Of a stretch of DNA of 64,000 bases, positions 45,001 through 64,000 are shown piece after piece. The notes beneath the pieces were generated by a model, which did no database searches, had not been told where the DNA came from, and saw only the letters and a list, made by a program, of their open reading frames with translations. The DNA lies in contig JAQURX010000002.1 of the NCBI GenBank assembly GCA_028715415.1, forward strand, positions 119,144-183,143. The letters are read 5' to 3'. The DNA is from Candidatus Omnitrophota bacterium. Lineage in GTDB: Bacteria > Omnitrophota > Gorgyraeia > Gygaellales > Profunditerraquicolaceae. Every line of letters starts with the position of its first letter. Positions within the stretch are counted from its first letter, which is position 1. The position numbers and the translations under genes were made by a program.

Positions 45001-48000
45001 GAATTAAATTAGCAGTAGACGATATAGAGAAAATAGTTTTTGAACTGGGTTGCAATATCCACAAATACGGAGATAAAGGCATAATTACTTTAAGGATAAT
45101 ATATTTAGAAGACAGGATTGCAGGGGTTGAGATTGTTGCAAGGGATGTGGGAAAAGGTATTGGTGATGTTGAGCTAAAGAGGAGAAGTGCTTTTAGTGAG
45201 GTTAGTTTGAATATTGGCGAAGGAAATGGATTAAGGACTATTATTGGGTATCCTGAACCATCAATTTTTTCCAGAGAAGGCGAAGTCGTTTATGAAACAG
45301 GCGATGGCAGTATCGGCCGCAAATTTATTTATGACTCTGGTAAAAATGAATTCGTGGAATTTCCGGAAGGAAGCAGTATCAAGCAAGGTACTCGCGTCAG
45401 ATTAACGCTAATTAAAGGAAATCCCGGGAGTACTTTATTAGGTATTGTATTTTTGCCAATTTTTGCGTCTCCATCGTTTACTTTTCTAGTAAGTGTGGCA
45501 GCAATTGTCTTATGCGTAGCTATGCTTTTACTTCTTCCGCTAATAAGAAATACCTTGAGCGCTATAAAATCGAAAAATCCTTTATATAAAAATAAGTTAG
45601 AACTTGAAGCGCAGATTGCCGAAAAGGTAAGGGTTTTGTTTGGAAAAAAGATTTCATTCAAGGCCCTATTTAGTAGAAAATCAATTTCAGTTGAGCGGGC
45701 TCGTAGAGGATTTAGTAATTTTACAGTTAAGAATATTACCGATAAAGGGGAAGAATATCAGAAACTTCGGAGTTTGGTTAAGTTATTAGCGCAAAACTAT
45801 GAAGAAATAAGCGCGGCATCAGAAAAGAAGAAGGAAAAGAAGAAATACCTTAAGGCAGCGCTTGTTTTGTATGAGTTGCTTATGCTTTCTACCCCGGATT
45901 TTATTGAAAAGCATCATTTTTGCATTAAATCAGCTGATTGCCATAAATTATTAGGGGACAGAGTTGGCGAGAACACTTATACGCATGCAGCATACGGGAT
46001 GCTCCAATCAGCTAAAGATAATCCTCAATTTGCTGAATTAGAAAAACAGGTTTTATCCAGAATACATTCTGATAATCATCCTGTTCCGGAGCAAAGCCAT
46101 ATAGGCATAGATTCTATGGGCCCAGAAGAGTATGTTTTTGGGATAGGTGTAAGAATGACAGAAACAGCCGATGGAAAATTAGGGTTGATTTGTGATTTTG
46201 ATAGAAATATCCCAGTGGATAGATACGAGGCAATTTCACAATATTTAATTGGCCTATCGAAATGCTATGGCGTGGGGATATTGATTAATTTAAACAGGGT
46301 TGAAATTTGGCGTAATTTAAGCACCAAGTCAGCAGGCGACTTTGCTTTAGGTACTATGCGTTTAGATGAAAGATTATTGAATCCAGAGGCAAGGCCTATT
46401 TTATGGGAAACCATTTTCCATGAAGTGATGACAAGCCTGTTAGTGTTGATTGAGCCAAATCGCGGGGTGCGCGAAGCTGTAGCAACAAATTTAAGCATTA
46501 AGCATTATTTAAATCCGAAAGAATTTATTTTTGGTTCGCAGAATGCCCTGGAAGATACTTTACGATATCGCAGGAATTTTATTGTAGCATTAAACTCCGG
46601 AATCTTTGAAGTTGCTCAGCCGCTTCGTGAGTTATACGGCAGCATAGAAGCTGCTTCCGGTAATGAGTTCGTAAATATTAAAGTATTTGAGAGTATTAGA
46701 AGCCAGCCACGTTATAGCCTGGAAAAAGATAAGTTGGAAGAAATTGAGAAACAAGGCGATCCATATGAAATAGTCCAGAATTCAGTTAATTTAATGAATT
46801 GGTTCTTGGAACAAGTCAATACTGTTGATTTTGTCTGGAGATATATAACTAAAGGCCAAGCAGGAAAAGATAATATCCTTAATATTATTAACGCGTCTAA
46901 TAATGATAATCCTGTGACGGTATGGAACTTAATAGTTTCGTCGCTAATAGCAAAAAGATTTACTCAAAGCAGAAGAATGGATCAAAATGGATTAATTATT
47001 GCAAACGCGATAATTGTATTAGCCCGAGTTTATGAACGCAGAATTATATTAGAAATGAAGAAAACTATAAGCTATGAGGAGCTTTTATATTTGTCTTTAA
47101 TATTAAATGAGCAGGGCCCTGTTAAGACTGACCTTCAATTCTGGGCTTTGGAAAGAGGAGCGTTTAAAGATGTCACTGTAGCTATAGAAAAAATTGCAAA
47201 TTTAAGGGGTAAGTTGGAAATTCCCGAAGTCAGATTCTATAGGCGGTTACCAGCTTTAATAGAATTTGCTTTAGCGCCGAATACAGTAGTCCCTGAAGGG
47301 GCGCATTTGGTTGTAAGTGGATATGGCGATAGGTTAAGAAAGGTACGAAATGCACAAAAACTCACTAAACAAGAAGTCAGTTTTTTAACCGGTGGAAAAG
47401 TTGATGCCGGGCGTATTAAAAGATGGGAAACGGAAAGAGTTTTGCCTCAGATGGATTTGTTAAAAATAGTAACCGATGCATTAGGTGTGCCTTTAATCCA
47501 CATAACAGATAATGCAGGAGATGTGGATTGGGATATCTTGAGATTGCGAGCGAATCGCGCTCCAAGAATAAGAAAGGTAAGGGAATTATTTGGGTTTAAG
47601 CCTATTTATGTTGCCAAGGCTTTAGGTTCAAATGTCGGGGATTATGTGTTGAGGCTTGAAGAAGGGGAAATTTACCCTAGCTTAGAAGTCATTACAAAAT
47701 TAGTTTCAGTATTTAGAGATGAAGTGAGTGCAGAATATTTCTTGGTAGGCACAAACGAGCCTGATTGGACAAAAATAGGTGTTGTTGATGGATGGGAAGA
47801 GCGGATTAAAAATGTTATAAAACAACTTGATTTGAATGTTGTAAAGCTATATCTAACAAGTCATATTGATGATCAGCGTTTTAAACAAATGATGCAGGGG
47901 GTTCTCAGGCCTTCTGTTTTAGAGATGGAGAGAATTGCTGGATATTGTTGTATTCCTCCTGAATATTTGATAAAAGGCACAAATGAACCGGATTGGAGTT

Positions 48001-51000
48001 TGTTTGCATATATATTACCCGGATATGGAATGCGTATTCGTGATTTAAGAGAAAAAAATATGCTTAAGTCTTGTGAATTAGCGGAGGTAGTTGGAGTTGG
48101 TGATGATACTATTTGTGATTGGGAATTTGAGAGAAAAATTCCTTTAGATGAAAATATTACTAAATTATCTAACGTATTAAAAGTTGATAGAATGTATATT
48201 TTAAAGGCGCTAAATCCTCCAGATTGGGATAATTATGGAGTAAAGCCTGGCTATGGCGGGAGAATTTCCAAAGCAAGATTAAAACAAGGATATTTTATTA
48301 GAAATTTAGCAAAGTTAGCAGGATATTCTCAGAATACAATAATTGGGTTAGAGAATGAGGATATTGGGCTTAGCCCATTTATATCAGAGGTTCTTGCAGA
48401 AGTATTGGGAGTTACAGTTGATTACCTTGCGCGTGATAAGAATCCTCCGGACTGGGATAATTTTGGCATTACCAAAGGCTATGGCAAGAGGATTAGGCGA
48501 GCTAGGTTGGCTAAAGGGTTGGCTCAATGTGAATTAGGTAGAAGTATAGGTTTATCAGTTAGTAGGGTTGCGGCTTGGGAGAAAGAAGAGATTGAATGTC
48601 CGACACACGAAGCATTAGAGCGGTTTGCTAAAGCTTTGGATGTGCCGATTGAGTATTTAAAGAATGGGCAAAATGCGCCAACGTGGATAAAAGAATATAA
48701 GTCAAAAGGTGCAATCGCAGGATATGGCGCGAGAATATATAAAACAAGAATAAGAAATGGTTACACAATTGAATACTTATCAATATTAACAGGCATTGAC
48801 CTCCAGACATTATTGTATCTTGAGTTAGAAAGAAGAGATAGGGTTATACCAAGAAGAAATATTTTAAGTAAAATTGCAAATGCATTAGGCGTATCTGTGG
48901 AATATATTCAGCGATCTCAAAATCCTCCGGATTGGAAAACTTTCGGAATTATTAATGGCTATGGTAGAAGAATTAGAAAAGCACGAATGGCATTAAGAAT
49001 GAGTGGGGAAGAATTGGGATTAAGAATGAATATAACAAAAAGCAATGTTTACCAATGGGAGAGTAGAGAATGGGTGGCTGGTTGTCCTATACATGAAAAA
49101 TTGGTAGCTTTTGCTTCTGCCTTAGGGGTTTCATCAGAGTATATACGAAGAGCTACAGATGAACCAGATTGGGAAACCTTCGGTATTTCTCAGGCCAGCA
49201 GCATCCTTATTGGAATCCAGCGGGAAAACAAAGGCATGAGCCGGAAAGATTTAGCGGAAAGAATCAAGGTCAATGAAAAACAAATAGCCGAATGGGAAAA
49301 CAGATATTGCCAAGACCTGCCTACATACACTAATTTTAGGCTTATGGCCGAAGCGATGAAAGTGGATATTGAAACGTTAATCCATCTTCCAAAACTTGAA
49401 GAAGCAATCGGGTTAATTGATAGCCTAATTTATAAAGGCATGCATTTAAGCGCGAAATTGTTGTTGGAGTGTTGTGTTGATACATATGGATTATATACAA
49501 ATAAAGAGTTTTCTCATTATTACGTAAAGGATATTGAAAAGAAGCTGTCCAGAGATTTGAGTGAAAAGAAGAATTATTTGATCTCCCTGGGAGTAGAAAT
49601 AAATGATGAATTATTAAATAAGCCTTTACATGTTCTGGAATATCATATTGACCAGACAATTCTTTTGCCGCTTCTAAACGGAAACGGAGAATTTGATAGG
49701 CAATTGATTATGCCGCTTTTTATTTCGGAAACACTAGATGAGTATTGCCCACGCTCAACTGCATTTAGGAGTTTAGCGCGTTTGGCAGAAATTCAACCTA
49801 AAAGGCTTGCGGATAGATTTCTAACGTTATTGCAATTACCAAGTGGAAACGGCCATGGCAACCTGCCGCGAGATTTACTAAGATTTCTTAATACGCCTTC
49901 AGGAGGGGTGTTAATTAATGCTTTGCAGAAAGAAGGAGATGGGTTGGCGAGTTTTATAGAAACGCACAGAATATTAACTGAAAAAAGCAGTTTAGCTCAT
50001 GTTTTGCAAATCCAAGACCAGGCAGGGAATGGAGAGAAAGACCACAAAAAAGTAGATTCTGCTATAAAGATGTTAAGAAATGAAGGAAAGGTGAGAAAGG
50101 CAAAAGCTTCAGAAGTTGAAAGTAACGAATCTGAGAAAAAGTTTGCCGAAGAAACCATCGGCCTTGTTTTGGATAAACCAGTGCATTGGCATACCATTAA
50201 CGCTATCCCGAGAGAATTTCCATTTGGCGGGCATATACATCAATGCAAGAATCATTACGATATTTATATACGAAAGGATCTTTTGAAATCAGGAAAAGCA
50301 GCGCACGAAGTTACGGCCGGGCTTTTGAGAGATTGCAGCCCGGGAAGAGTGCATTCTGCTGCCTGTAGTGTAGAAAACGCATTCCGCAGTAAATCAAAAG
50401 ATTTATCTGAGCCCCGCGGAGAAAACAAAGAAGACTCTTTAACTTTCTCCGAATTAAAGATTAAGCAGCGGAATTATCGTTCGAATCCGCACCAGCCTTA
50501 TTGGTTTTTAGAAGTTGAGCATCCGCATTTTTATGCAACAACCGCGGTTTGCGGGATAGATTTTCTCCCTCCTGATTTACAACCGGCTTGCGGAGGAGTG
50601 GTGTTTAAAAGTATTAAAGGTTGTGATTTGAATAATGTAGCTCTGCGCAGAAGATCGCAGAAAGAAGCCGGGTATCTTGCTCAGGAAGCAGACCGTACTT
50701 CAGCTAGATATAACGGATACTCCCGCGGTGTCGCAACAGTGGTTGTCTCAGATGGAGAAATAAGCAAGAAGAAAGTTTTGATAGAATTATCACGGGCTTT
50801 TGCATCCAGAAAACTTTTAGGTTGGAGATGCATTGCCGCTCCCAGTTTAGGCACTACAGAAGAAGATAGTAATATTATTTCAGATACAGCATATGAGACT
50901 TCTTTACGTGAGTATTTAAAAAATTCAAGAGTTAATTATGTGACAAAAAGAAAGATAGAAAAGATTATTAGGGAGAAAAAATGGAATGAGATTGACCGTG

Positions 51001-54000
51001 ATTTACGCTGGAAATTAAGATTAGTTAAGCCGGCAGTAGGTTGTACAGAAGCTAAAGGTGGGTATCCACCGTTTGCATGGCTGTTGGGTGGAATTAGTTT
51101 AGCAGCTTCTATCCAAACCCTTATTTTGTTTAAAGGTTATGATTGTTTTGTAGATATTATGATAGATGGCTTCGGCCGAACAGGGCAATCTGTTGCGCGT
51201 AGTATTATTCATGATCTGCCAGAAGAGGTAAGGATTGTAGCGGTAAGGAGTAAAGGGGAGAATGCGCAAGGGATTGTTAATCCAACGGGTTTAAATAAAA
51301 TCAGCCTGTTAATGTGTGTGCCGGAAGTAGAAAGAGGGCAGGAAGTTTGTTTAAAGTCATGTTATAAAAGTGAATGCCAGGCTGTGCTAAAGCCGGAATT
51401 TTTCAAGCAAAAAGCAGACATATTGATTCTTACTGACCGCACGTGCAAGATTAGGTATAGAGATTTAAAGGAAATTAAGGCAGATATTATTATAGAAGCA
51501 ATCCCTAATATTCTTTCCCGCAGGCAGATAAATTGGCTTTCCCGCCATGGCAAGACTTATTTTTCTTCGCTTTGTTTTGATGGAGGAATAGCGTTTGGGA
51601 ATAATCGGGAGGAAGTTATACATGAGGATTGTCCGCAGGAAACCGAGCATATTGATAATATGCGTTTACATGTGCAAACCGGAATTAATGAGCTAACAGT
51701 AGCAATTATGTATGATGCCTTGAAAAGGCGTGCAGCTGCAGCTAAAAGATTAGGAGTTGGCAGAACCCTTCCTTGGCAAGCCGGGAGAGTGTTGGCTAAA
51801 ACAATACGCCGGAACGAATATGAATTATGGAAAGAACTGCAGGCAATAACAACAAAACAAAAGAAAATTGATTGCGAGAAAATAATGGATTGGAAGGATG
51901 GATGGAAAATAGCGAAACATCTTATTCCTTGCGCCAGCCCTAAATTAATCCCCGTGTTGAATTTAGCAATTCAAAACAGCCGTAAAGGAAGAAATACCGC
52001 CTTTGCAATCTCCAGCGCTATAGCTGAGGTCGCGCGGCAACAGGCGCTCTATGACGATAACTCACCCGAGGAAGCGATTATTATTTTAGAAACTGATCTT
52101 ATGCAGTTGTTATTTTCTGTCGAGCAGATAGCTATCAAGTATAAAGGTAATATTTCTCCAGAAGATGTCATCGCCGAATTAAAGATAACAGATTCTTTCA
52201 GGATTGATTTAATTGAAAGATTGTTTGTAGAATTTAATAAAGGAAAATACTCCTGGCCATTAGCTGGAGATGATAGAGAAAATATCCTTATTAGTTTAAG
52301 AGGGTTTGAGGTGATGCAAAAGAGGGTAGCAGCTTTTAGATTAACGCGATTAACTCGTCAATTGGTAGAGCTCGGCCTTTTGCCCCGGGCAAGAGGCGTT
52401 TTACTAAAACAATTGGAAGATGCTGATGATTTTCATGTCCGCGAGGATTCCGCGCATGCGTTAGGATTTCTTCTTCTTGAAGAGAAGAATAAGCAGGCTC
52501 GGTGGGTGATCGCTGAAGCTTTGTTGCATGCGTGTTCCGACCGCAGTGAGGCAGTAGCTTTATGGGCTCATTGGGCAATTTCTATGGGCGTTACCGTTAA
52601 AGCAATAAATCTGGATGAGTTATTAGTAGATATTTCTGATGAGATAAGAATGATTAAGGATGAAATTCGCGGAGTAGATTTGAAGCGTAGCCAAAAAAGG
52701 AATACTCCCGATATTTTAGGTTATTTATATGAGATGAAAGCCAACATATGTGCTTTAAAAGACCAGAAGAAGCGTGCGTTACAAGCTTATAGGTCTGCAC
52801 GAAAACAGTACAAAAAAATGGAGAAATTGATACATGGCCCGTTAGCATTAAAATGTTCTTTGTCTTTGGCCAAAAGTTTGCAGCAGGCAGGCTATAGATC
52901 ATTGGCGATGAAGGAATTTCTTAGCCTGGTTAATCCTGAACAGATGAAAAAACATGCCGGGTATTCAACTATATTTGGGAAATTAGGCGGGCAAGAATAC
53001 TGCCTTTTGGCGCTGGAAGGCATTTTGCATATATATTCACCTATGACTCCGGAAGTTAATATACAGGTGGCAAAAAGAATTAACACTTTATTGGCTTGTA
53101 TAAGCGAAAAAGGTTGGAAAAATGTAGATTTAAAAAAGAAATTTAACCCTCTAGTTGAGATATCAGAACTTATGGTTGCGGATTTATCCGGGCAGGTGGT
53201 TTCTTATGCTCATTATCTAGGTTTGATTCTTATTTATGGAAGTGAAGTCTTTCATAGTGAAGGGTGGGAGAAAATTCAGTATGTGATAGAAGATGTTTTA
53301 ATGTATGCTGATTTAACTGATAAGAAAAATAAAAATCTTCCGGATGTAGCAATAATTTCACAGCTTAATTATAGATGCAGAAAATATAAATTAAACCCGA
53401 TTGAACATGATTTATTGTTTGGGATATTCAAAATCCTAAAGATTATTCAATCACGCGTATTTACTTTCTCAGACGAAGTTGTTTCCGGGGAAAGTATTTT
53501 CTCTTCTCGTAGCCAGGTCTCAATGAAGTTGAGATTTAGCAAAGGAAGATTCCAAATAGAACAAAGGGGGTTTCCTTTATCAAGATTATCCCCAGATGAG
53601 AGGGAGGAATTTAATAGTATACTGGGTTTTGTAAATCACAGCATACATGCGCCTCCGGAATATGATCCGAGTTTGCGTTTTTCTCCGAGCCACACCTCTG
53701 TTTGTAATCTTCGTTTTGTTTCTCACATAGATTCTGTCCAAGGTAGAAATCCTTCCATTGTTTATTGTCCTGAGATGCGCACTCTTTATATCAACCGTAT
53801 CCTTTTGGATAAGCGCATTCCTTATAATTACAAACAAGTTGCTTTCTTTGAAGACGCAGTCTTGCATATGTTTTATGGTTTGGATGAAAAGGAAGCCAAG
53901 CCGTTATTGCGGCGGTTTATTCAGGATAATATGCTTGCAAGGCCGCTCGAGGTGTTTCTTGTAGACCAGCAAGGAGCTGGATTATTAACTAACGCGCCGC

Positions 54001-57000
54001 TTTTAAGCCTTATTGGATCAGGGAAGTCAGTTACTCCGGAAACTGTGGCATTATACAGTTTTCCTGTATGCCTATTTGTGGCTGCATGGGACTTACTTAA
54101 GAAAATAAGATGGTTGATGATCGGGGTTGTTATTTTTATTACAATTTTATCCGGCTGTGCTACTAAAGGCAGAGTTAGCGTTATCGGCCAATCAAAGGGG
54201 AATAAAGATATTTTAAGGGAGTTAGAAAAGGAAACAGGTTTTATCCCTGAGTGTAAAGCTGAAATCTTAGCGATTGGTTTTGAAGGGCTTGGCAGCCATA
54301 ATATGCGTAATTACCTGGCAAATTTACACGATAAGTATATCCCTCAACTTGAGTATTTTATGATTGATGACCATCGTAAGGATGCTGTTGAAATAGTTAA
54401 ACGCGCAGTTAGGGCAGGAAAGATTATTGCTATTCTTACTTATAGTAACAACAGTAGCGTCTTTATGGGGCTTGGTGGTGGATGGCATGATTTTAGTGAA
54501 GATTTAAAAAAGATAAAGGTATGGATTGATATTGCTAAGTTTGACGATGATAATTGGAATCCTGAAATTGCAGATAATATTATTATAGTTCTTAATCTTC
54601 ATACTGATGATGTCATTCAAGGCCCATCAATGTATGCGCGAAGATTTGAAGGAGAGCCTTTAGCGATTGTTGACCGGAAATATATTAACCTTGGGCATTT
54701 GCGTATGCCTCTCGTCCCAGAAGATGCCACAGAAGATGAATGTTGGTATGCTATATCTTCAAATGAATTGTTTATCAGGGCTTGTAATCTGGTTTATGAG
54801 TTAAAACAAAAAGGCAAATTTCCCAGCACGCAGCCGTATGTTAAACCTGTAAAGATGCAGCATAAACGCCGCGGTTCCATCTCTTGGCAGGCGCTTCTAT
54901 GCTGTGCGGTTTTCACGATTCTAGGATTTGTGGGCATTGCATTGTTAAATATTCATAATGATGCTGTTGCTCAAATGGCTTCTATATCTGGAGCAAGCCC
55001 GGAGAATAATCCTGCGAGCTTAGTTCTAGATACTGCAGTAACTTTCGGTGAAAGTTCTGTTTTGGGGCTGCAAGAATCTTTATTATGGATCGTATTTGTT
55101 TATGCGGCAGCGATTATTGTGTTATTGGTTGCTGTGGTGTTTGTTTTCCACAAAATCCTGGCCGAGAAATCCATAATTAAAGACAGCGGAGAGGTATATT
55201 TTGAAAACCAAAGTTATCAGGCGAAATTATTTAATCTATCTATTTCCAGCCAGGGCAATGATGCTGAAACAGGTTTTGGGTTTAGTAAAGAGGGAAATAG
55301 CGGCGAATTGTTTATAGGGGAGAAAAACGGAGTTGATTTTATTGGAATCCAAAAAGGGCAATTTTATGGAGCAGCGCATTGGCATCCGATAAATTCAAAG
55401 AAAAATTATTTTCTCCCTAGTTTTGAAGATATATACGAATCTTATAGATACGGAATAGACTTAGCCGTTGTTGTTTGGGGAAGAGGGAATGATCTATTTG
55501 CGACTGAAGTATCCTTGCCTTTGCTTGAAGACGGCCCGATTAAGCCCTATCAAAGATACCAGAAGTTTATGGATGATTACGGCCCTAAAAAAGCGCTTAA
55601 AATATTAGAAAAATATTCTGTAATAAAATGTTATCAGCTTAGGCTGGAAGCAGGAAGGTATATCTCTAAGCAAATTCATGCAAGGCAGGTTTTAGAGGCG
55701 GTAAAAAGATTAAGTGGAGAAAAGCCCGGTTTACGCTGTTCGGGTTTGTTGTTTGCTAGCGTAATTCCGATGCTGGCGAGTAATGATGTAGGAAGTGTAA
55801 TGCCGCATGCGCCTCCATGGATCCCAATATTGTTTTTGGCCGCAATTTGTTTGTCGTATCTTATCAGTATTTCTAATTTTTCGCAATCAAATGCAAATTT
55901 CCCTCTGGAACAAGATTCTGAAATTACGTTGGATCAGCTAACAGAGAAGATAATTAACAATTGTATGAATGGAGACTTTAGATTGCTTAGGCTTGATTGG
56001 GGACAGGCAATCCACCAGCATCAAGAGTTTATTAAGCACGCCGCTGCAATAAATTCCGCAATTAAACATTTGCTTAAAAACCGTCAGGAAGATTTCATAA
56101 ATTTTAAAGATTTCCTGAAAGCTGCGATTGCCTGCCGGATTGAAATGTTGGAGCATTATCAAGCTCCTTTATCAGCTGAAGGGCTAAGGCAGATTCAGCT
56201 AACCAAGAATGTTTTAATAAAGGACAATCGTTTAACCCAAGAGGTTCTATTGAAGGAGCTTAATAGGGTATTGAATCCTTTTAGGAATTGGTTTATCTAT
56301 TTGTTTAGCGGAGAAAGAAAGGGTATTTTTAATAATACTTTTAAAAAACAGACTGAAAGGATATATTTGGTTGCGACTTGGGGGTGTTCTACGCAATGTG
56401 ACCATTGTTATATTGCAAGTTTAATCCAGGTTACGATTTTTCCTTGGGTTTGGCTGGAAGAATTAGGAAGTATTAACTATTCTAAGCATGTTGATACATA
56501 TAAAAATGATTTTTTAAGAGATTACTATGATTATGTTTTTGATAAAGATGCTTCGGATGTCGCTGATTTATTTAATATAGGGTCGGTCTCAACTTCCGGA
56601 TTTGCTCTTGGTTCAGTAGGAGAGAGGGCTTTTGTGAAGTTCTTGCAAAACAAAAAAGCTATAGGAGGGATTATTATTAGTGTTGTGCAAAGCGCTTGGG
56701 TGCGCAAAATAGGCGTAGAAAAATATATCAGGTATTTGCAGAATATCGATGGATTGTTCCAAGCTCATGGAAGAAAAGGGACTTCTTTAATATATTTCGA
56801 GTTTTCTCTTAACCGCAGGACTGATCCTGAAAATTGGTTTGAGCCTGTTAAGGGTTTTCTTAAAACGAAGGAAAAAGTCTCGCCAAACTTAGTTTTAGAG
56901 AATGCCGGAAGAATGCGCCAACTCTTTGAATGCGGATTAATAAATGCTAATGTGGTTTCTTCAATGTTTACTCATGAAAACTATAGAAAATATTTTATAA

Positions 57001-60000
57001 TTCCTGATGGGCAGGTTGTACGTGGAATTGGGTATGATAAAGATGATAATTGCGCAAGCTATAAAGTAGTTCCGGGTTTAGAAGGCATTGGTAATAAATT
57101 AATTAGATGCTGGTATTGCAGGAACAATTGTAATGGGGATAAGAGAATTAATTGTGTTGGTAGAAAAGATTATTTTGCCGCACAGGGGTTATCTTGTGCA
57201 GGAGGGTTTGCTGCGGAAGATGTGCGTGATTTGCATTGGGCGAAAAGGGTGAATAATCTACCGTTAAATTATGATGCAAGAAAAGAAGCGGTGTTGAAGG
57301 AAATTTACTCAAATACTAAAGTTGTTTCTGATCCTAATACTGTCGCTTATGTAAGGGAAAGAATCAAAGCGGCAAAAGAAAAAGTCCGCAATCATCCTCA
57401 ATGCGATGGAAGAATTATTGTTCAGCTTCAGCTTATGGAAGAATGCCCAATCCGCGCCGGCCCAATGCCTAATTTGCATGCTGTTGTTAATCGTGAACAC
57501 GAAACATCTTTCCAAAAAGCAATCTTCCTTGATACAACTGAAAGCCAATCCCTTCTTGATCCAGCCAACGAGTCCAAATTGCTAATCGGCCTTATACATG
57601 AAGCAAGAGCGCAGGCTTATCCGGCCAGCGCAGATGCGGAGAATGAAACCTTTGCCAGTATCTATTGTGGCGTTTCAATAGGAGATACAATTGAGGAGCT
57701 ATTTGATCATGATCTTTGGCTTTTGCATCGTGACGAAGATCAATATGAAAATATCCCCCCGCAATTCGGGCATCCCAAGACTTACCTTAGGGAATTATTA
57801 GGAAACTCTAAAGTCTGGGTTGATGTAGGGTGTGGCTTGGGGGTTGCTGCAGTAAAACGGGCGTTTTTTGAAAAGTATCCGCTAAAAGTTTATGCTGTTG
57901 ATATCGTTGATTGGGCAAAGAGGGTTGGGAAGATCAAAAAGTACTTAGCAGAGCAACACAGTTATCTTTGCCTTGAGGACTTTCTTGAGCTTCGCGGGAA
58001 AATGTTATCAAGCGGAAAGTTCTGTTTTATTGAGGATGATATGGCATCTGTTGTTTTGCCTGAGCCGCCGGATTTGGTTACAAATTTCTATGTATTGCAG
58101 TATATGCGCGATCCGTTTGCCGCGATAGTCAATATTTATAACCAGCTTGCATTATGGGGGAGGTTTGTTTTTGCGGTTGCTGTCCCTAAACGGGCAGGTG
58201 TTTTTAAACAATATGAATTACTATTTGATTACTTATACAATGAACACAGTGCGCTTGTTTTAAGATGGCATGACAATTCGTTGCCTGATGTTGAAACCTA
58301 TTTAGTTGAGATAAACAAAAATCAGCCAGGTACTGTCCGGAATATATTTGAACTAAATAATTCTCAAGAAGTTTTTGTTAGGCTTAGCGTCCGTGATGAG
58401 AAAAGGGTTATTATCCGAGTTCCAGCTTATGCTGGAAAATCAGTTGTTAGAGAAAGCGCATTTTTATGCCTTAACCCAGGCTTGTTGCTCGCAGCGTTCA
58501 GCGGGAGCGGATATGCTATTGGGCAGTCCTCGTTAATAATTTGTTTAGGCATAATTGTATTGGGGTATTTATTGCTAACTATTTGTTTCAGTGATGATGT
58601 TGTGAGATTGCCAGAACCAAATCCCAGTGCCTTTACTTTATGGTCAAATTTACTTATAAATAAAAATAAAAGAAGAGGGATGCTTTTATTCGGCAATAGC
58701 GGAAGCGGTAAATCATTGCTTACTGCGCTTATGCTTGGTTTTGATGAATTCGGCATAAGAGTAAATCCTCAGCCTCAATGGTTATTCGGAGGGGATGATG
58801 TAATTAAAGGTATTCCTTTAGGGAATAAGCTTTGGGCAGGTTATGATTATAAGAGCCCTGTAATAACTAGTTACGACCCCGCAATCCAAAAACGGCTTAA
58901 GGAATTAGGCTTTAGGGATCTTAGAAGAAGAAATTTAATATGGACTAATATATTCCCGGTTAACATGTTTGTACCGGTTAAACTCGCAGTTTATTTAAAT
59001 ATTACGGATAATGATAAAAAATTAACTCTTGCCCGCGAACAGCTTTTTGAGAAAATTATTGGAACAATCCAATATTCATCTTTACCTCAATGGTTTTTAA
59101 ATGCTTTCTCCGGAATAGAAATGTTGGAGGTGCCCATAGCAAGAAATCGCAGTATAAGAAATTATCCTCAGGCGGCTTTGCGGATAGAAGAAGCATGGCG
59201 CAGAAGTAGTTCAATAAAAAGACAAACTTCGACTTTATCGTGTTACGGTTTACTTTTGGCCACGATTCCTGTATTAACTAATGGTATCAGCCCTATTGTG
59301 CTGTTGTGTGGAGTGTCCGCCTTAGCAGTAATTACTCTTTGTATTGTTTCTTTATTTGCTCAATCAGGAGAACAGGCTTTACAGAATTTGAATCAGGATA
59401 ATAGAAAAGGAATCAACCTGGGAGATTCTGGGGTTGTAATTATTAATGATTCGGTAATAGAGGCAAAGGCAGAAGTGCGGAAAGCATTCAATATGCTTGG
59501 CGATCTATTAGATAAGAAATCCGAAAACAAGAAAGTTAAATTAACAGATCAATTGCTTCATAAGTTTTTTATCCGGGGGATTGAAGCTTTGTGGGCTTTT
59601 GATTTTTTCAAAGGGGATATTGTAAACCAAGAGGAAATCAAAAAGAGGATAGCTAAAGCTATTGTGGTAATTTATGAGTACAAAAGATTAATGGAGGCAT
59701 TTTGTGATTATGGTTCACAGTTAAGGAATTCCGACGCGGCAAATATGGAGTGGGGCAGGAATATGCTTGAATGTATTGATGCAGGAGTATTTGATGCGGA
59801 GTTTTTTGCTGGGTTTAATAATTTTGTTAATGTTCTTCAGGAAGCAGCGGGTAAATTGAGAGATTTTCTGCTTAATTCTTATGATCCTCATCGTGCAGCG
59901 TTGTCTCTTCGTCCTGTGATTAATACTGATATCAGGGCCTGCGGCTCTGATGAAGTTTATTGTAATGACGGAAGAATGACGAAGCCCGCTATTGCTAAAA

Positions 60001-63000
60001 CCATAGAGGTTTTAAAACTTGCTAAAAGGCGGGGTTTGATTGAAGAATCCAAGACGGATTTATTTGAGGGAAAAATAAAACTCTACCATGTTTTTAATAA
60101 CCTCAATCCGGGAGAGGATTTTTCTACAGTAAATTATCTTTGGCGTGAATCTCCAGCTAATTATTTGTTTGCAGTAGCTTTAAGAAATCCTGTAGAGGAC
60201 GAAAACGGTGGCAGCCTTCCTCCTGGGATTTACATTCCATTCGCTTTGTATTTTTGGCTGGCGTTCTGCAACTTTGATTTATTCAAGGAATTGCTTGGAT
60301 ATGAAGAGAAAAATTTCTTAGGCCAGAAAGTAAAAGCAAAGGATAGAAGGTCTATTGTAGACAGGTTAAGCGCCAAGCCGCAATTGACAAAACAACAAAG
60401 GCCGCTAGTCGTAGCAAACTTGCTTACTTATTGTTTATTGTATGAGAAAAAACTGGCATTGCTGCAGGATTTGCGTCCTGCTTTTAAAGAAGCTTATGAC
60501 AATCTAACAGCTAATCGTTTTAACACTGCTGAAATCCCGGAATTATTTAGCAGATTTTGCCTTGTTTCAGAAGATATTAACCATATATTTGGTTCATTTA
60601 TAGGGTTATGGCATACGGTTGAGGGGGTATTGTCTGAATTATATAGGGATGTCGATAAGCTCGATAACCAAGAAGAGTTGAAAGTTCTCCAAACTTTATT
60701 TGAGTTTTTGGACAAGAATACACTTTTCTGGCAGAAACCAATTTCTCCGATTATCATGACTTTGATGGATACAGTTTCGTCTTATAGCTATATTGACAGC
60801 GTAGATAAAGAAGGATTTCCTTTGATGTCAGAGGTAATTAAGAATATGAGTATATCGCGCTGGCTATACCAAAAGTTTGCAGCAATCAGGAAACAATTAG
60901 GGATTTCTATTCAAAAGTGCATAATCTTGTTTCCTTTTGCCGGGCTTTTGCTTTGTTTGGGCGACCTGCATCGCGCGAAGTGGGGGATGAAGCCTACTAA
61001 AGCCGAGATTGAATCTGATATCTCCGGATCAAGCAGTTTTACAAAAAATACATATTTCTTAAAGGTAGTTGAGGATGCAATTACATTAGCTGAATCAAAA
61101 GATAACCGTGTAGCAAGGACATTGAGGGCAATCAAGGATTCTATAGTAGTAAGGGCAGGGCCCTTTACCTATATATGGGGAACTTTCCGCAACAATACAC
61201 TCTACCTCGACCAAACATTACTAATTAACCCTTCCTTACGCGAAGAATTAGCCTTAACCCTTATCCATGAAGCAAGAAAGATTGCTTATCCTAAAGCCCA
61301 AGATGAAGAAAATGAGAATTTCGCAAGGCTCTGTTTCCGCGAAAGCAGCCATAAAATATCATTTACCTTAGATGAACTAGTTTCAATAATTCTAAACGAA
61401 TGTACAAACGGAAACTTTGCTTCTCTTTCTCTGTATTGGAGCCAAAAAACATACCAATACCAGGAATTTATTAAACATGCCTGCGCTATTAATACTGCGA
61501 TTAAGAAACTCATCTCCGAGTCAGTAACAGTAGATAAGGCTTTCCGGAAAGAATTTTTCAAAGCAGCAATCGCGACGAGAATTGATATGATTGAACATTA
61601 TATGGCACCTCTTTCCGATATGGGTCGGGATTTGATTCATGATATAAAGCAAAGGATGGATAAGTTTACAGAAGATTCTTGCTTGGATATCATTGCAAGT
61701 CTTATGAAGCCCGATCGAGAACTCTTTATCAAATTATTTAATGAGGAGAGGTTAAGGATTATTGGTTATCAACTATTTGCTCCAAAAGTTGTAGCTACCT
61801 GGGGTTGTTCTGAACAGTGCGACCATTGTGATGGCGCAAGCCTGTTCCGGGTAGATTGTTTCCCATATATCTGGCTTGAAGAAGCCCAAGAACGCGGCTA
61901 CCAGATTGACCATTACAAAAATGGGTATTTTAAAGATTACTATGATTTTGTTTATGATAAGGATGGGTCAAGTGTAGTCGCAAAGTTTGGTGCAAGCTTT
62001 GCTTATACCGCGCCAATTGAAGAAGGATCGGTAGCAGAGCGTGCTTTAGAAAACTTATGGTTAAGTTTTACTATTTATATCAGTCTTGCTCCGAGTGCAT
62101 TCTGGCGCAGGGTTGGAACTGAAAGATATATGGATGCATTGATTAATATGGAGAGGATATGCCTGAATGCAAAAAATAGTAATATTGCTTATAAATATAT
62201 TGCATATAGATTTTGCCGTTTAGATGATCCCCAGATGTATTTTGAGAATTTGTTTAAATGGGATAATATCGTAGAAGAATCAAGACAAGGGCAGCCTACT
62301 GAAATAAGTAATTGCGGGAGATACTGGCAGTTGGCTTCACTTGGAATATTGGATTTAACCCAGGCAAGTGGGTCGTTTGCTATTGAAAGAGAAGATACCG
62401 GCCGAATTTTTATTTTACCCGATGGCCAAGTTATTAGAGGATTGACTTGTGAAGACGATATCCATTTACGCCGCTATGAAACCGTTCCTTCTCTTGGCCC
62501 AATCAGCAAGAGGTCTATTAGGTGCTGGAATTGTCATTTTGATTGCCAAGGTAAGAATCAAGAAGGCTGTCCGGGAAGAAAGGCATATTTTACTGCACAT
62601 GGATTATCAGAAACAGGCGGGTTTAGTGTTTATTGCGGCATTCCTTTGCCTGCAATCCGGGTATTATTCAAGGCATTTTCGATAATTAGTGTTGTGTTGC
62701 TATCTTTATTCATTAAAGGCTGTGGTTATATCCCAGGAATTGTTAAAGATGTTTTTGCCCAACAATCCTATTGTTCTGATAATTCAAAATATATTGAAGA
62801 AAACACGCGTGTTATTGATAGAAATGGAATTTCAGTTAGATATTTTGACGCAGGTGATGCTTTGGAAACAATTTTATTGGTTCCGGGATTTGATGAAACT
62901 ATTGAAATATTTAGATGCAATGTTGAAGCTTTGGTCCAAGCAGGGTTTAGAGTAGTATGTTTTGACCTTCCGGGGTTTGGACAGACAGGTATCCCGGGTA

Positions 63001-64000
63001 ATTTTGATTTTTCAACTGCAGCATACGCCGGCTTTATTCACGATATGCTCAATGGATTAGATATCCAGGAAGTCTATCTAACCGGGCATTCCATGGGAGG
63101 AAAAATAGTACTTAAATTCTGCTTACTATATCCGGAAATGGTAAAGAGGGCTGTAGTAATTAGCTCGGTAGGTATTGTTTCAAAAGATTCTTGGCTTGAT
63201 TTTGCTATGGAGTTATTTCCTCAAACATTCGATAATCCTGTTAATGCGGCAATTTTAAATAGTGACGCTTTAGATCCTCTCAACGATGAAGAATTTGCTG
63301 CACTTTCAAATCTAAATATTCCATTTTCAATTCTCTGGGGTGAGGGAGATGTCATCGCCCAACCGTGGGAAGCAGCTGTTCTTTCCGAAAAACTTCATAA
63401 TTCATCTGTAACTATTTATGATGACGCCGGGCATCTTGTTACGACAGAAGAAAGTACAAATGTTAACAGCTTGCTAATTAAATTCTTCCAATTCAGCCTT
63501 GCTTTTGCTGCGGTTTTAGCCTTAGGAGGATGTACAGAAGGTTTAAAAATTGCATCTTTAGAAATTGATAATGTAATGGCAGGGAAAGAGATATTTTTAT
63601 TAGTAATAATCCTTTCATTTCTTGGCATTCTTAGTTTTTCTCGATCAAATTCAAATTTTCCTCAGGAAAAAAATTCAGTTAAAAAGTCAATCGAAGATTA
63701 TTCTGAAATCACATTGGATCAATTAATAGAAAGGATAATTAACGATTGCAAGAATGGAGATTTCAGGCTGCTTGAGCTTAATTGGGACCAGGTAATCTAT
63801 AGATATCAGGAATTTATTAAACATGCCTGCGCTATTAATACTGCGATTAAGAAACTCATCTCCGAGTCAGTAACAGTAGATAAGGCTTTCCGGAAAGAAT
63901 TTTTCAAAGCAGCAATCGCGACGAGAATTGATATGTTTGAGCATTATAAGGCTCCTCTTTCGAGATTTGGGATTGATGTGGTTAGGGATATAAAAGAGCG
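3..64000 (+). CDS. Giant multidomain ORF in frame 3, truncated by both window edges. More than 21,300 sense codons with no in-frame stop seen. Mosaic of enzymatic, regulatory and hydrophobic modules.
   Basis: I tiled the whole window into frame-3 triplets by hand and found no TAA/TAG/TGA. Independently indexed motifs at 438 (RILIVDD), 25506 ([11 protein letters not shown]), 28740, 31353, 37689 ([11 protein letters not shown]), 41277 (GFDGLWLDAA), 48021 and 63081 (GHSMGG) all start at positions divisible by 3. Codon usage is uniformly RNY-like with A/T-rich third positions. The ORF track has no frame-3 ORF, consistent with one ORF above its length cap. Confidence 0.85.
110..119 (+). promoter_or_regulatory. 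Shine-Dalgarno-like TAAGGAGGTG upstream of ATG 125
   Basis: AGGAGG at 112-117 with a 7-nt spacer to the ATG. AAG GAG GTG is an unusual codon choice for this AT-rich gene if it is read in frame 3. Confidence 0.45.
125..364 (+). CDS. 79-aa small ORF in frame 2, nested in or overlapping the giant frame. It has a canonical RBS, and its product is a small mixed-composition protein of unknown function.
   Basis: It is listed in the ORF track. TAAGGAGGTG lies at 110-119, 5-7 nt before ATG 125. Frame 2 here has about 30% G at the first codon position and a balanced amino-acid composition (W, H, Y, D, E, K). The frame-3 reading of the same stretch is low-complexity S/L/I/K with many NCG and NAG codons that are atypical of the giant gene. 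Frame-2 stops are at 110-112 (TAA) and 362-364 (TAG). Confidence 0.4.
   Translation: MYKAEQLEFTRVMPRKDGIFVDAKYNNWHYEFHFLIQQDGKVKGETSTGSWLELSKEFSSLVVKRARFVIANQAKLIHL
359..365 (+). promoter_or_regulatory. CUU-UAG-C site with the geometry of the prfB-type +1 frameshift. It joins the end of the small frame-2 ORF to the giant frame-3 ORF.
   Basis: The frame-2 codons are CTT(359-361) TAG(362-364). The frame-3 codons are TTT(360-362) AGC(363-365). There is no SD-like stimulator immediately upstream, so this could be coincidence. Confidence 0.2.
429..800 (+). other. Receiver (REC, CheY-like) domain 1 within the giant ORF
   Basis: PRLRILIVDDQ (beta1 with DD pair), AVITDKEMPGISG (phospho-acceptor Asp in an ITD context plus MPG), IILLATTKPKD (conserved T and K region). 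Confidence 0.7.
850..1480 (+). other. Polytopic hydrophobic region of about 4-5 predicted TM helices
   Basis: Long stretches with no charged residues: LSPVFLAMILDSIHSVISNHLFFGLSIVAMVIVADLG, FSFTLFSVSMVIGFVCV, FFIASSAITLGAVISQTI, IADIMLLASLLVLFIGFTVDII, SIFISLSAINCIGACF. Confidence 0.5.
5055..5260 (+). repeat. Paralogous protein module 'W.M.TRAPPL.A.L..EEILH...H..ID.Y', copy 1 of 3
   Basis: HWSMITRAPPLLAQLVVVEEILHYYFPGQNELVHSVIDDYIRVNLATSFHEAIQNAKQYGIHPVD. Compare the copies at 14060 and 15625. Confidence 0.6.
9060..9440 (+). other. Receiver (REC) domain 2, with a divergent acidic pocket
   Basis: LFVLAVDNEDWELMLLKRTLKG, NLVITDNNMPGMWGHDLAGKIREIAPNILIIMRSTEP...K. The Asp in the ITD context and the MPG motif are conserved, and DNED replaces DD. 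Confidence 0.6.
9684..9750 (+). other. Four-cysteine CxxC...CxxC zinc-ribbon-like motif
   Basis: NPCLSCITNMKCKAVDGEGQCGKCVG. Confidence 0.35.
14060..14270 (+). repeat. Paralogous 'TRAPPL/EEILH' module, copy 2
   Basis: SWAMLTRAPPLIALLTFAEEILHFVIDEDLEVHNAIDCYVANNLYDYFLSEIEKAKRKGINPHD. Confidence 0.6.
14530..15300 (+). other. TPR-repeat region of several tetratricopeptide repeats. A second TPR-like stretch follows at about 15880-16200.
   Basis: EEARKYIELDPYDPDGYEDLCRISLGLGDFDTVIAAADKIIFFNPDSGLGHSRKVQALRAKGEIKAALRAAVKFVNLFPKDSIGWSQLCDVYYDLGDMEGALSSAYEAISLDPSSPYGYGQL has the classic W/L-G-Y..A..-F..A..-P periodicity. Confidence 0.65.
15625..15830 (+). repeat. Paralogous 'TRAPPL/EEILH' module, copy 3
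   Basis: SWAMFGRVPRLIALYTLVEEILHYSKNKDKEVHDLVDDYIAENIYDDFLAAVKEAADNGIVAYD. Confidence 0.55.
17375..17480 (+). repeat. Hydrophobic hairpin motif 'SCHAW.VLALF ... E.LW(A/S)TGPLWVVV', copy 1. DNA core ctgggcaaccggaccgctgtgggtggtggt at 17441-17470.
   Basis: LSCHAWSVLALFVGSYQQTSVIEFLWATGPLWVVVALAAVLFLSMMNF. Confidence 0.6.
20055..20170 (+). repeat. Hydrophobic hairpin motif, copy 2 (ggaccgctgtgg at about 20115). A partial third 'SCHAWPVLALL' copy lies at about 20565-20650.
   Basis: LHCFASVPLLALLGPWSIGPLWIALGIFALIFVLQF. SILSCHAWPVLALLSFNSLWLAVALFAFLGVFYL. Confidence 0.55.
24990..25380 (+). other. Class-I SAM-dependent methyltransferase-like Rossmann module
   Basis: NLILDIGGAWPTAIKL (motif I-like), LVVILDIDPDKIELAK (acidic post-I), FIFIEGDVRALPIE (motif II-like), LLQDGGKFYLAG (motif III-like). 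Confidence 0.45.
25500..26410 (+). other. Complete thioredoxin-disulfide reductase (TrxB)-like FAD/NAD(P)H module with a CAVCD redox-active disulfide
   Basis: [30 protein letters not shown] (FAD GxGxxG). CAVCDG at 25893-25910. KKVVVIGGGNTGVEDALHLAKIASQVTLIV (NADPH GxGxxG/A). GIFAVGSV...GEGAAV at the C-terminus. Confidence 0.8.
29285..29360 (+). repeat. Repeat 'AQLGFTSPFTH..N..G.GL', copy 1. The DNA core is near-identical to 31446-31478.
   Basis: GLGLSQLGFTSPFTHVVNLVGIGLLLSVF. The core cagttagg(g/a)tttacttcgccatttacgcat is shared. Confidence 0.6.
31440..31520 (+). repeat. Repeat 'AQLGFTSPFTH', copy 2
   Basis: LGLCLAQLGFTSPFTHILNVTGVGLIILGLILVF. Confidence 0.6.
32700..32770 (+). repeat. Hydrophobic 'ESLWSTGPLW' motif copy (DNA ggtccgctgtgg)
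   Basis: GIIESLWSTGPLWMVALMVFSFVTYLFF. Confidence 0.5.
34650..34740 (+). other. Acidic and Pro-rich low-complexity linker
   Basis: DDGDDRKPEPVAPDPEPVGEDAPVGD, immediately followed by the hydrophobic hairpin at 34740-34900. Confidence 0.5.
34740..34900 (+). repeat. Hydrophobic hairpin motif copy (LACHTLPVVLLLGLLGLGGCG ... ESCWATGTLWVVFVMLF) containing an internal lipobox-like LGGC
   Basis: Diverged copy of the CHAW/TGPLW pair. Its DNA tgggcgacggggacgttgtgggttgtt resembles the 17441 core. Confidence 0.5.
35150..35330 (+). other. HprK-C-like P-loop module 1 (GESTSGKST Walker A followed by DD)
   Basis: LWANLIIDRETTRGLLIFGESTSGKSTITSLMLGLNPKSKDVGLSNRWILGVDDLAQGF. Compare the HPr-kinase C-terminal pattern G.LI.G.SG.GKSE.AL.L...G..LV.DD. 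Confidence 0.45.
35790..35870 (+). repeat. Hydrophobic 'ESLWSTGPLWVVV' motif copy. DNA ctggtcaaccggaccgctgtgggtggtggt at 35815-35844 matches 17441-17470 at 29 of 30 positions.
   Basis: LIESLWSTGPLWVVVILLICTLFF. Confidence 0.6.
36790..37965 (+). other. GT4-family (GT-B fold) glycosyltransferase module
   Basis: KPTVVHIMSNLGRGGAERNTLNLVAGL at the N-terminal half. [48 protein letters not shown] is the E-x7-E retaining GT-B signature. Confidence 0.75.
40555..40770 (+). repeat. Paralogous module 'IRAGP..TYIW.T.RNN..Y.D...L...L...LIHEARKIAYP', copy 1
   Basis: IVIRAGPGLTYIWATYRNNIFYIDKDLLSNQYLRFELLVTLIHEARKIAYPEAKDHENEVFAQEC. Confidence 0.55.
40840..42250 (+). other. GH13 (alpha-amylase family) TIM-barrel catalytic module with conserved regions I-IV apparently intact
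   Basis: Region I is GIKVIFPAILNHVS. Region II is GFDGLWLDAASAL at 41277 (nucleophile Asp). Region III is RVMAECYDVFD (acid/base Glu). Region IV is RRHFARVNHDKLE (NHD). Confidence 0.7.
44870..45265 (+). other. GHKL-type ATPase (HATPase_c, histidine-kinase or anti-sigma Ser-kinase-like) module
   Basis: N-box ELGCNIHKYGDKG. G1 box IVARDVGKGIGD. G2 box IGEGNGLRTI. Confidence 0.6.
47310..49390 (+). repeat. Tandem array of about nine XRE/Cro-C1-type helix-turn-helix domains. Each is about 75 aa (about 228 nt), joined by a conserved 'N(P/E)PDW..FG...GYG.RIR' linker.
   Basis: YGDRLRKVRNAQKLTKQEVSFLTGGKVDAGRIKRWE. YGMRIRDLREKNMLKSCELAEVVGVGDDTICDWEFERKIPLDENITKLSNVL. KNPPDWDNFGITKGYGKRIRRARLAKGLAQCELGRSIGLSVSRVAAWEKEEIECPTHEALERFAKALDVPIEYL. 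QNPPDWKTFGIINGYGRRIRKARMALRMSGEELG... Confidence 0.75.
51130..51560 (+). other. Possible NAD(P)-binding Rossmann module (D-2-hydroxyacid-dehydrogenase-like GxGxxG...AR)
   Basis: IMIDGFGRTGQSVARSIIHDLPEEVRIVAVR. Confidence 0.35.
52330..52600 (+). other. HEAT/PBS-lyase-like alpha-solenoid repeats
   Basis: DDFHVREDSAHALGFLLLEEKNKQARWVIAEALLHACSDRSEAVALWAHWAIS. Confidence 0.3.
55880..57250 (+). repeat. Radical-SAM-like module, copy 1: CX3CX2C plus a C-terminal Cys-rich (SPASM/twitch-like) segment
   Basis: ATWGCSTQCDHCY at 56385-56408. C-terminal CWYCRNNCNGDKRINCVGRKDYFAAQGLSCAGG. N-terminal ITLDQLTEKIINNCMNGDFRLLRLDW...QEFIKHAAAIN. Confidence 0.5.
57580..57670 (+). repeat. 'LIHEAR' module, copy 2 (partial)
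   Basis: LLIGLIHEARAQAYPASADAENETFAS. Confidence 0.45.
57750..58230 (+). other. Class-I SAM-dependent methyltransferase module
   Basis: Motif I VWVDVGCGLGVAAV. Post-I VYAVDIVDWA. FCFIEDDMASVVLPEPPDLV. FYVLQYMRDPFAAIVNIYNQLALWGRFVFAV. Confidence 0.6.
58640..58810 (+). other. HprK-C-like P-loop module 2 (paralog of the module at 35150)
   Basis: LWSNLLINKNKRRGMLLFGNSGSGKSLLTALMLGFDEFGIRVNPQPQWLFGGDDVIKG. Confidence 0.45.
61150..61340 (+). repeat. 'IRAGP...LIHEARKIAYP' module, copy 3
   Basis: IVVRAGPFTYIWGTFRNNTLYLDQTLLINPSLREELALTLIHEARKIAYPKAQDEENENFARLCF. Confidence 0.55.
61340..62660 (+). repeat. Radical-SAM-like module, copy 2
   Basis: ATWGCSEQCDHCDG at 61806-61829. C-terminal CWNCHFDCQGKNQEGCPGRKAYFTAHGLSETGG. 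It is collinear with copy 1 throughout. Confidence 0.5.
61461..61589 (+). repeat. 129-bp segment identical to 63807-63935, an intragenic direct repeat about 2.35 kb apart
   Basis: caggaatttattaaacatgcctgcgctattaatactgcgattaagaaactcatctccgag...gcgacgagaattgatatg is the same in both places. The copy-1 equivalent at about 56020-56160 is only about two-thirds identical. Confidence 0.9.
62790..63490 (+). other. Alpha/beta-hydrolase-fold module (GHSMGG nucleophile elbow), bracketed by lipobox-like hydrophobic segments
   Basis: ILLVPGFDETIEIFRCNVEALVQAGFRVVCFDLPGFGQTG, VYLTGHSMGGKIVLKFCLLYPEMVKRAVVISSVG, GEGDVIA...DDAGHLVTTEE (catalytic His region). Confidence 0.75.
63640..64000 (+). repeat. Radical-SAM-like module, copy 3 (N-terminal part only, running off the window). 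Its N-terminus resembles copy 1 and its middle is DNA-identical to copy 2.
   Basis: FSRSNSNFPQEKNSVKKSIEDYSEITLDQLIERIINDCKNGDFRLLELNWDQVIYRYQEFIKHACAINTAIKKLI... Confidence 0.55.
63807..63935 (+). repeat. Second copy of the 129-bp identical repeat (partner at 61461-61589)
   Basis: Character-by-character comparison of the two stretches. Confidence 0.9.

Follow-up and report, generated by a model that had tools for sequence, protein, structure and literature searches.

We found that a 64,000-nucleotide (nt) stretch of DNA from a Candidatus Omnitrophota bacterium (contig JAQURX010000002.1, positions 119,144 to 183,143; the whole stretch is called the window below) is part of one giant gene that houses three paralogous modules. 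These modules are probably unannotated, highly diverged members of the radical S-adenosylmethionine (SAM) superfamily, and copies 2 and 3 appear to have been homogenised by recent gene conversion within the gene. We give this explanation as a whole a probability of about 0.68. What is new here is an unannotated, divergent branch of a known superfamily, found inside an already known class of giant genes.

We counted stop codons in all six frames of the window. One frame on the + strand, from nt 3 to nt 63998, has 21,332 codons and no stop, and is open at both ends; the remaining five frames have 691-2286 stops each. A model that saw only the letters and their open reading frames (the sequence-only reading) had described three paralogous, Cys-rich modules within a giant gene, and both the gene and the modules were borne out. 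BLASTP of each module against the translated giant frame found exactly three copies, with no additional ones in the upstream 55 kb. Copies 1 and 2 share 39% amino acid (aa) identity over 434 aa (E 6e-86). The 120 aa of copy 3 that are visible in the window are 74% identical to copy 2 and 57% identical to copy 1. The motifs that had been quoted from the modules are also present. In a motif search of the frame, CX3CX2C occurred at just two places among the 21,332 codons (56385-56408 and 61806-61829), and CX2CX3CXGX5CXGR occurred at 57108-57164 and 62523-62579. The frame and the parts of the modules are:

3..63998 (+): giant multi-domain open reading frame (ORF) with many transmembrane (TM) segments; no stops in frame +2; houses all three modules.
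55809..55877 (+): hydrophobic TM-like or leader-like segment, APPWIPILFLAAICLSYLI, directly 5' of copy 1; Kyte-Doolittle (KD) hydropathy 1.9.
55878..57248 (+): module copy 1, complete, 457 aa; from BLASTP and an AlphaFold2 (AF2) model.
55929..56342 (+): N-terminal all-helical domain of copy 1, with motifs ITLDQL, YQEFIKHAAAIN and RIEMLEHYQAPLS; model residues 18-155.
56355..56930 (+): radical-SAM-like alternating beta/alpha core of copy 1; model residues 160-351.
56385..56408 (+): CX3CX2C of copy 1, CSTQCDHC, that is, C170, C174 and C177 of the module; from the motif search.
57108..57164 (+): C-terminal four-Cys motif of copy 1, CWYCRNNCNGDKRINCVGR, a candidate auxiliary metal or cluster site; from the motif search.
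61338..62657 (+): module copy 2, complete, 440 aa, no hydrophobic leader; from BLASTP.
61806..61829 (+): CX3CX2C of copy 2, CSEQCDHC; from the motif search.
62523..62579 (+): C-terminal four-Cys motif of copy 2, CWNCHFDCQGKNQEGCPGR; from the motif search.
63573..63635 (+): hydrophobic leader 5' of copy 3, paralogous to the copy 1 leader (47% identity between aa 18582-18735 and aa 21166-21331).
63636..63998 (+): module copy 3, N-terminal 120 aa, running to the end of the window; mosaic; from BLASTP.

The module has relatives elsewhere. With a full HMMER profile search we found 57 among 1.84 billion representatives, 44 of them at E<=1e-10. A word-indexed search of 5.8 billion proteins returned 4 relatives (35-39% identity) with a single query and 6 matches with a profile, so the family is visible only with the full HMMER search. 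None of the word-indexed matches carried a function-level name or a Pfam domain. Many of the 57 relatives lie within fragments of proteins of 2,200-6,500 aa, and others stand alone, at a length of about 540 aa. The full N-terminal helical domain is restricted to a close subfamily; its 'Y.APLS..G' part is found family-wide.

When species-representative genomes were scanned, 11 related loci turned up, none of them more than 41% identical. Their sources are metagenome-assembled genomes (MAGs) of Omnitrophota, MAGs that carry the label 'uncultured Planctomycetia/Planctomycetales', and a single Desulfobacteraceae MAG. The module is a stand-alone ORF of 543-578 codons at five of the loci (L001-L003, L007 and L009; stand-alone homologues P0002-P0006), and at the other six its frame stays open past both ends of the locus. 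Clusters of several modules are not unique to the window, because contig CAZWJT010000006.1 (L012/L013, about 48.7-68.8 kb) also has three copies, in about 22 kb of one stop-free frame. These are 25-26% identical to copy 2 of the window.

Several lines of evidence point to the radical SAM superfamily, as the sequence-only reading had proposed. All members whose sequence reaches the CX3CX2C triad have it unchanged (48-50 of 50), in a family whose members are otherwise just 20-40% identical. The third Cys is preceded by H in 25 members, by Y in 11 and by F in 8 (44 of 49 in all). Distant members carry textbook-like motifs of the radical-SAM beta1 loop, for example VNVTWGCSGGCVYC, LNLSRGCDTRCPFC and VYVTEGCSRQCHYC. 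Eight of the 26 members scanned matched the Pfam Radical_SAM profile (PF04055; best E 2e-5, 25.3 bits). The match always started immediately ahead of the Cys motif; it covered positions 1-147 of the profile in P0021 and positions 2-139 in P0047. When we searched the sequences in the Protein Data Bank (PDB) with the family profile, 8 of the 13 matches at E<=10 were radical SAM enzymes: CysS, TYW1 (two entries), YydG (three entries), TM_1862 and SkfB. These align at the Cys loop or in the beta4-beta5 region.

The predicted structure of the module points the same way. The AF2 model of copy 1 (m28e05dc38578; 38 sequences) had a predicted local distance difference test score (pLDDT) of 90.1 and a predicted TM-score (pTM) of 0.91. 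A run for copy 2 with 7 sequences had a pLDDT of 59 and left the Cys loop unmodelled, and was excluded from the fold search. The copy 1 model has a helical domain (residues 18-155), a strand (162-168), the Cys loop with C170, C174 and C177, six alternating strand/helix units up to residue 351, a beta-sheet (372-397), and a tail with C411, C414, C418 and C426. That is, the modelled core is a partial (beta/alpha)6 TIM barrel, and the CX3CX(aromatic)C motif in the model directly follows strand 162-168, in the beta1 loop. Motifs after beta2, beta3 and beta4 are conserved in the family, including 'TSGF' after beta3 and 'S...S.W.R..G...Y' at beta4, which aligns with 'ISLDA..YRRI.GG..Y' of TYW1. The nearest structural neighbours modify peptides or proteins: EpeE/YydG (8ai1), RimO, SuiB (5v1q), SkfB (6efn), anSME (4k36) and ChlB (9gm3). 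MiaB, viperin and MoaA are further close systems within the superfamily.

The four-Cys tail is a different matter. The sequence-only reading had compared it to SPASM/twitch auxiliary-cluster domains, a comparison for which we found no support. None of the SPASM models (PF13186, TIGR04085) matched the whole modules (Pfam E<=1, NCBIfam E<=10) or ten isolated C-terminal regions (E<=10). SPASM domains have seven Cys in the pattern CX9-15GX4C - gap - CX2CX5CX3C - gap - C, or a truncated twitch version of it. In contrast, the tail of the module keeps just four, its 'LPDG....G' hairpin has a Gly at the SPASM Cys position, and the upstream 'CGR' Cys is missing from copy 1 and several homologues. The tail is conserved only in the approximately 21 closest members (18-21 of them), as CX2CX3-4CXGX4-6C followed by GR...F...GLS..GGF. 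Membership of the tail in SPASM/twitch is not supported by these sequence comparisons. The tail appears to occupy the position expected of an auxiliary-cluster domain, and a cluster or Zn site is therefore plausible.

Other results weigh against the radical-SAM assignment. No radical-SAM model matched copy 1 or copy 2 (Pfam E<=1; NCBIfam E<=10), and phmmer with copy 1 found nothing among PDB sequences. None of the Radical_SAM matches in relatives reaches the gathering score (29.5 bits), and an NCBIfam scan of 38 members matched only unrelated fused domains, chiefly histidine kinases. Every PDB sequence match of the family profile has E>0.05, and Foldseek gave no match to the model at E<=0.001. 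The position after beta2 that canonically holds the GGE motif holds a conserved D-x-L-R-D-Y-Y-D. There are other differences from known radical SAM enzymes (PF04055). The commonest residue before the third Cys is His, the N-terminal helical domain of about 140 aa is not an RRE-type winged helix, and the module follows a signal-peptide-like or TM-like leader and is embedded in a giant ORF. Overall, the assignment is supported in part. No line of evidence is strong alone. Based on their combination we infer that homology of the module to the superfamily is likely; its catalytic activity is less certain.

A complete module is predicted to start with a helical domain, to continue with a partial (beta/alpha)6 barrel that has the CX3CX(H/Y/F)C triad in its beta1 loop, and to finish with a beta-sheet followed by the CX2CX3-4CXGX4-6C tail. 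If the module is active, the triad would bind a [4Fe-4S] cluster that reductively cleaves SAM to give a 5'-deoxyadenosyl radical, and the radical would abstract hydrogen from a substrate. A peptide or protein is the probable substrate, given that the nearest structural neighbours modify molecules of these kinds. The four-Cys tail would be the site of an auxiliary cluster or a Zn ion, and substrate binding, or docking of the module onto the giant protein, may be the role of the N-terminal helical domain.

The surroundings of the module and its relatives complicate this picture. Stand-alone homologues of about 550 aa start with Sec-type leaders, for example MKKTNSFIKITIFTIVYTLLFANISFADD, at the place equivalent to the hydrophobic segment of copy 1, and P0002 has a lipobox-like IIAC. 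In the window, copies 1 and 3 are preceded by hydrophobic segments. These leaders and segments predict a site outside the cytoplasm, which is ill-suited to an Fe-S enzyme that depends on SAM and a reductant and so counts against an active enzyme. The neighbours of the stand-alone genes (PhoH/PIN, SIR2, RR-EAL and genes with no known product) are conserved only between close pairs, and include no substrate gene or conserved partner, which also weighs against it. The sequence-only reading had pointed to a cognate peptide substrate, or a sequence like those of ribosomally synthesised and post-translationally modified peptides (RiPPs), as something to look for elsewhere in the genome. We saw no RiPP-like precursor near the stand-alone homologues, and a RiPP context is not supported.

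It is possible, if unlikely, that the modules descend from radical SAM enzymes and have lost SAM chemistry. They would then be Cys-rich domains, exported or on the membrane surface, that bind metal, are stabilised by disulfides or sense redox state, with a structural or binding role in a giant envelope-associated protein. The Sec-like signal peptides, the lipobox, the hydrophobic segments before copies 1 and 3, the D.LRDYYD motif in place of GGE and the lack of a radical-SAM profile match at threshold all fit such a role. So does a preprint on Omnitrophota giant genes which predicts that most annotated domains of giant proteins are extracellular, although the same preprint calls its TM predictions unreliable (West-Roberts et al. 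2023, bioRxiv 10.1101/2023.11.21.568195). On the other hand, a CX3CX(aromatic)C that is invariant in about 50 members sharing 20-40% identity is the pattern of retained cluster ligands, and the conserved motifs after beta2, beta3 and beta4 also speak for a retained function of the core. In addition, a second preprint, on very long proteins of Gorgyraeia, argues that the metabolic domains sit on the cytoplasmic face (Nielsen & Lui 2026, bioRxiv 10.64898/2026.06.07.730766).

A more daring combination keeps both the chemistry and the leaders. In it, a radical-SAM-type Fe-S enzyme would be targeted into or across the membrane, by Sec leaders in the stand-alone proteins and by the preceding TM segments in the giant protein. 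At the cell envelope it would modify the giant protein in cis or act on surface molecules of prey or host, and the conversion tracts described below would be part of a birth-and-homogenisation growth of Omnitrophota giant genes by duplication of whole gene-like units. We regard this as quite improbable. The main oddity that it takes up is a secretion-type leader on a putative Fe-S radical enzyme with an invariant motif of the Fe-S/SAM type. If it were true, a radical SAM enzyme would be active beyond the canonical cytoplasmic setting.

The second part of our explanation, recent gene conversion between copies 2 and 3 of these radical-SAM-like modules, rests on a tract of perfect identity. The sequence-only reading had noted a 129-bp identity between the two copies and a mosaic copy 3 with a 5' end like that of copy 1, and we found both (129 of 129 positions). 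It had also put copy 1 at about 65% identity to the tract; copy 1 is indeed more divergent there, but a codon-aware alignment gave a nucleotide identity of about 55-60%. The two sides of the tract, and the identities along copy 3 from the same alignment, are:

61461..61589 (+): perfect-identity tract, copy 2 side, encoding EFIKHACAINTAIKKLISESVTVDKAFRKEFFKAAIATRIDM; exact repeat of 129 nt.
63807..63935 (+): perfect-identity tract, copy 3 side; exact repeat of 129 nt.
63621-63806 of copy 3 (with part of the hydrophobic leader): 75-87% identical to copy 1, 40-58% to copy 2.
63807-63935 of copy 3: about 55-60% identical to copy 1, 100% to copy 2.
63936-63998 of copy 3: 40-67% identical to copy 1, 60-72% to copy 2.

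The tract is the sole exact repeat of at least 40 nt in the window. It is nested in a stretch of 181 nt at 92% identity (63781-63961 and 61435-61615), with an abrupt left boundary and a right boundary that decays; the window ends 63 nt past the copy 3 tract. Because the offset between the two sides is 2346 nt, or 782 codons, the repeat is in frame. An exact 41-nt search of metagenome contigs, aimed at following copy 3 past the end of the window, had 0 matches.

Codon use separates homogenisation of DNA from constraint on protein. Within the tract, every degenerate codon is the same in both copies (42 of 42). Where flanking codons specify the same amino acid, 11 of 27 match (P about 1e-13, with a baseline of 0.49 from the comparison of copies 1 and 2). 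We therefore conclude that the tract reflects recent homogenisation at the level of DNA, since codon use excludes chance and protein-level constraint. We rejected selection at the protein or nucleotide level as the cause of the identity: codons for the same amino acid differ at 16 of 27 positions in the flanks and at 0 of 42 in the tract. A recent duplication of the whole module was also rejected, because the flanks are only 40-75% identical. Thus, of the conversion or duplication that had been suggested for the giant gene, conversion is upheld by the codon test and the mosaic, and a recent whole-module duplication is not, given the divergent flanks.

The tract has the features of gene conversion, that is, no synonymous divergence, divergent paralogous borders and a mosaic copy. 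Its ends coincide with QEFIKHA and RIDM, the best-conserved pair of peptide motifs in the N-terminal domain, and conserved places of this type are where exchange between diverged paralogues would be expected to resolve. The simplest history that would fit these sequences is one of old duplications followed by recent gene conversion between copies 2 and 3, whichever was the donor. The duplications that gave rise to the copies would be old (copies 1 and 2 share 39% aa identity). Copy 3 would have a copy-1-like backbone at its 5' end, and a 129-nt segment of it would recently have been homogenised with copy 2 by intragenic conversion.

We found comparable tracts in two relatives. The giant ORF at locus L011 has a perfect tract of 136 nt (2306-2441 and 3335-3470) with the same sharp-then-decaying profile, directly after its module. 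The giant ORF at L004 has a tract of 70 nt with one mismatch (9703-9772 and 12928-12997), and its contig ends inside the repeat. Each of these joins otherwise diverged, in-frame paralogous segments that adjoin the module. They suggest recurrent intragenic conversion and assembly breaks induced by the repeats.

A point against the conversion reading is that it relies on a single assembled sequence, and the identity could be an artefact of assembly or polishing, by consensus collapse of similar paralogous segments or by a chimeric join at a shared k-mer path. Tracts of 129 nt and, at L011, 136 nt are near the maximum k-mer sizes of common metagenome assemblers, and the L004 contig breaks off inside a comparable repeat. 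Nonetheless, we judge an artefact very unlikely because all of the flanks are unique, on both sides of each copy, and the frame is kept open. In addition, the identity on the 3' side decays gradually (92% over 181 nt), as expected of nested conversion events, and reads from a paralogue with 55-70% identity would not be mis-mapped onto the other copy and replace its sequence. The most that bubble-popping could have done is to raise an identity of approximately 98% to 100%, and recent homogenisation would still be needed. Also very unlikely is that the modules are not relatives of radical SAM enzymes, and that an unrelated alpha/beta domain with a chance CX3CX2C matched their folds through a generic Rossmann- or flavodoxin-like topology.

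Gene conversion between copies 2 and 3 would resemble intragenic (ectopic) conversion in other large bacterial genes in its perfect tract, its lack of synonymous divergence, its divergent paralogous surroundings and its mosaic. It differs from known cases in that the paralogues are whole enzyme-like modules in one ORF rather than repeats of adhesins or antigens. As an in-frame direct repeat with arms 2346 nt apart, the tract is a potential substrate for RecA-type deletion, or reciprocal duplication, of 782 codons. Such a deletion would take out the core of copy 2 and a hydrolase. We found no evidence of programmed variation; the two arms form a simple direct repeat, and no search was made for a recombinase site.

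The hydrolase lies between module copies 2 and 3 and is a complete alpha/beta-hydrolase domain (Abhydrolase_1, E 6e-28) at 62868-63270. An unannotated domain of about 125 aa, with the motif 'VRAGP...LIHEAR..AYP....ENE.FA', is also found next to the modules. It lies directly 5' of copy 2 (60963-61334) and 3' of copy 1 (57363-57662), and occurs a third time at 40365-40742. The occurrence at 40365-40742 is 52% identical in aa sequence to that at 60963-61334, and the one at 57363-57662 is 30% identical. The domain had zero Pfam matches.

The frame that contains the modules matches the 'Archaeovorin' type of giant gene described from Omnitrophota (10.1101/2023.11.21.568195) and the very long proteins of Gorgyraeia (10.64898/2026.06.07.730766). 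ORFs of the 'Archaeovorin' type run to tens of thousands of codons and combine numerous TM helices with enzymatic and other domains of several kinds, such as GT and TPR. As in those giants, there are more than 21,000 stop-free codons with dozens of hydrophobic segments: 46 strongly hydrophobic ones, at a median spacing of approximately 240 aa. The Pfam domains in the frame include Response_reg, SPase II (signal peptidase II), phosphorylase, TPR, Pyr_redox_2, M48 peptidase, GT4, alpha-amylase, five copies of HTH_3, methyltransferases and abhydrolase. This is a mixture of GT4, TPR, methyltransferase, response-regulator, peptidase and sugar-metabolism domains like that of the 'Archaeovorin' giants, and relatives of the module occur in Omnitrophota MAGs. 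Unlike in those giants, no SecA_DEAD and no canonical PF04055 domain was seen within the 64 kb, and the gene ends outside the window. Pfam Radical_SAM is frequent in giant proteins of Omnitrophota, according to the legend of Suppl. Fig. S1 of 10.1101/2023.11.21.568195 and to 10.64898/2026.06.07.730766. The present module family is absent from the examined text of both preprints.

Thus, a 'dark' block of giant genes of the Omnitrophota type can be assigned, with the strength given above, to a known superfamily, and doing so took a family profile and structure prediction. Because standard HMM annotation (with hidden Markov models) misses the module, surveys of giant genes may undercount radical-SAM-like chemistry. 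The module exists both as a stand-alone gene with a leader and in frame within longer genes, so the giant gene looks like an in-frame concatenation of gene-like units. The duplication, the mosaicism and the fresh tract are sequence evidence of how a giant gene is assembled, with gene-like units fused, duplicated and recombining within the gene.

Other features of the window lie outside the modules. GC skew is above 0 in all 2-kb bins (0.08-0.33). The five HTH_3 domains are of the Cro/C1 type and stand in tandem at about 48490-49400 (Pfam E 1e-52); a DNA-binding array of this kind is odd within a giant membrane-associated ORF. A paralogous pair of P-loop-like segments of the 'GNSGSGKS' type is found at 35151-35354 and 58638-58841, 23 kb apart in the same frame, with 43% aa identity over 68 aa. 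On the - strand, opposite the giant frame, open stretches reach at most 269 codons (54136-54942); this longest one probably results from the codon bias of the gene on the + strand.

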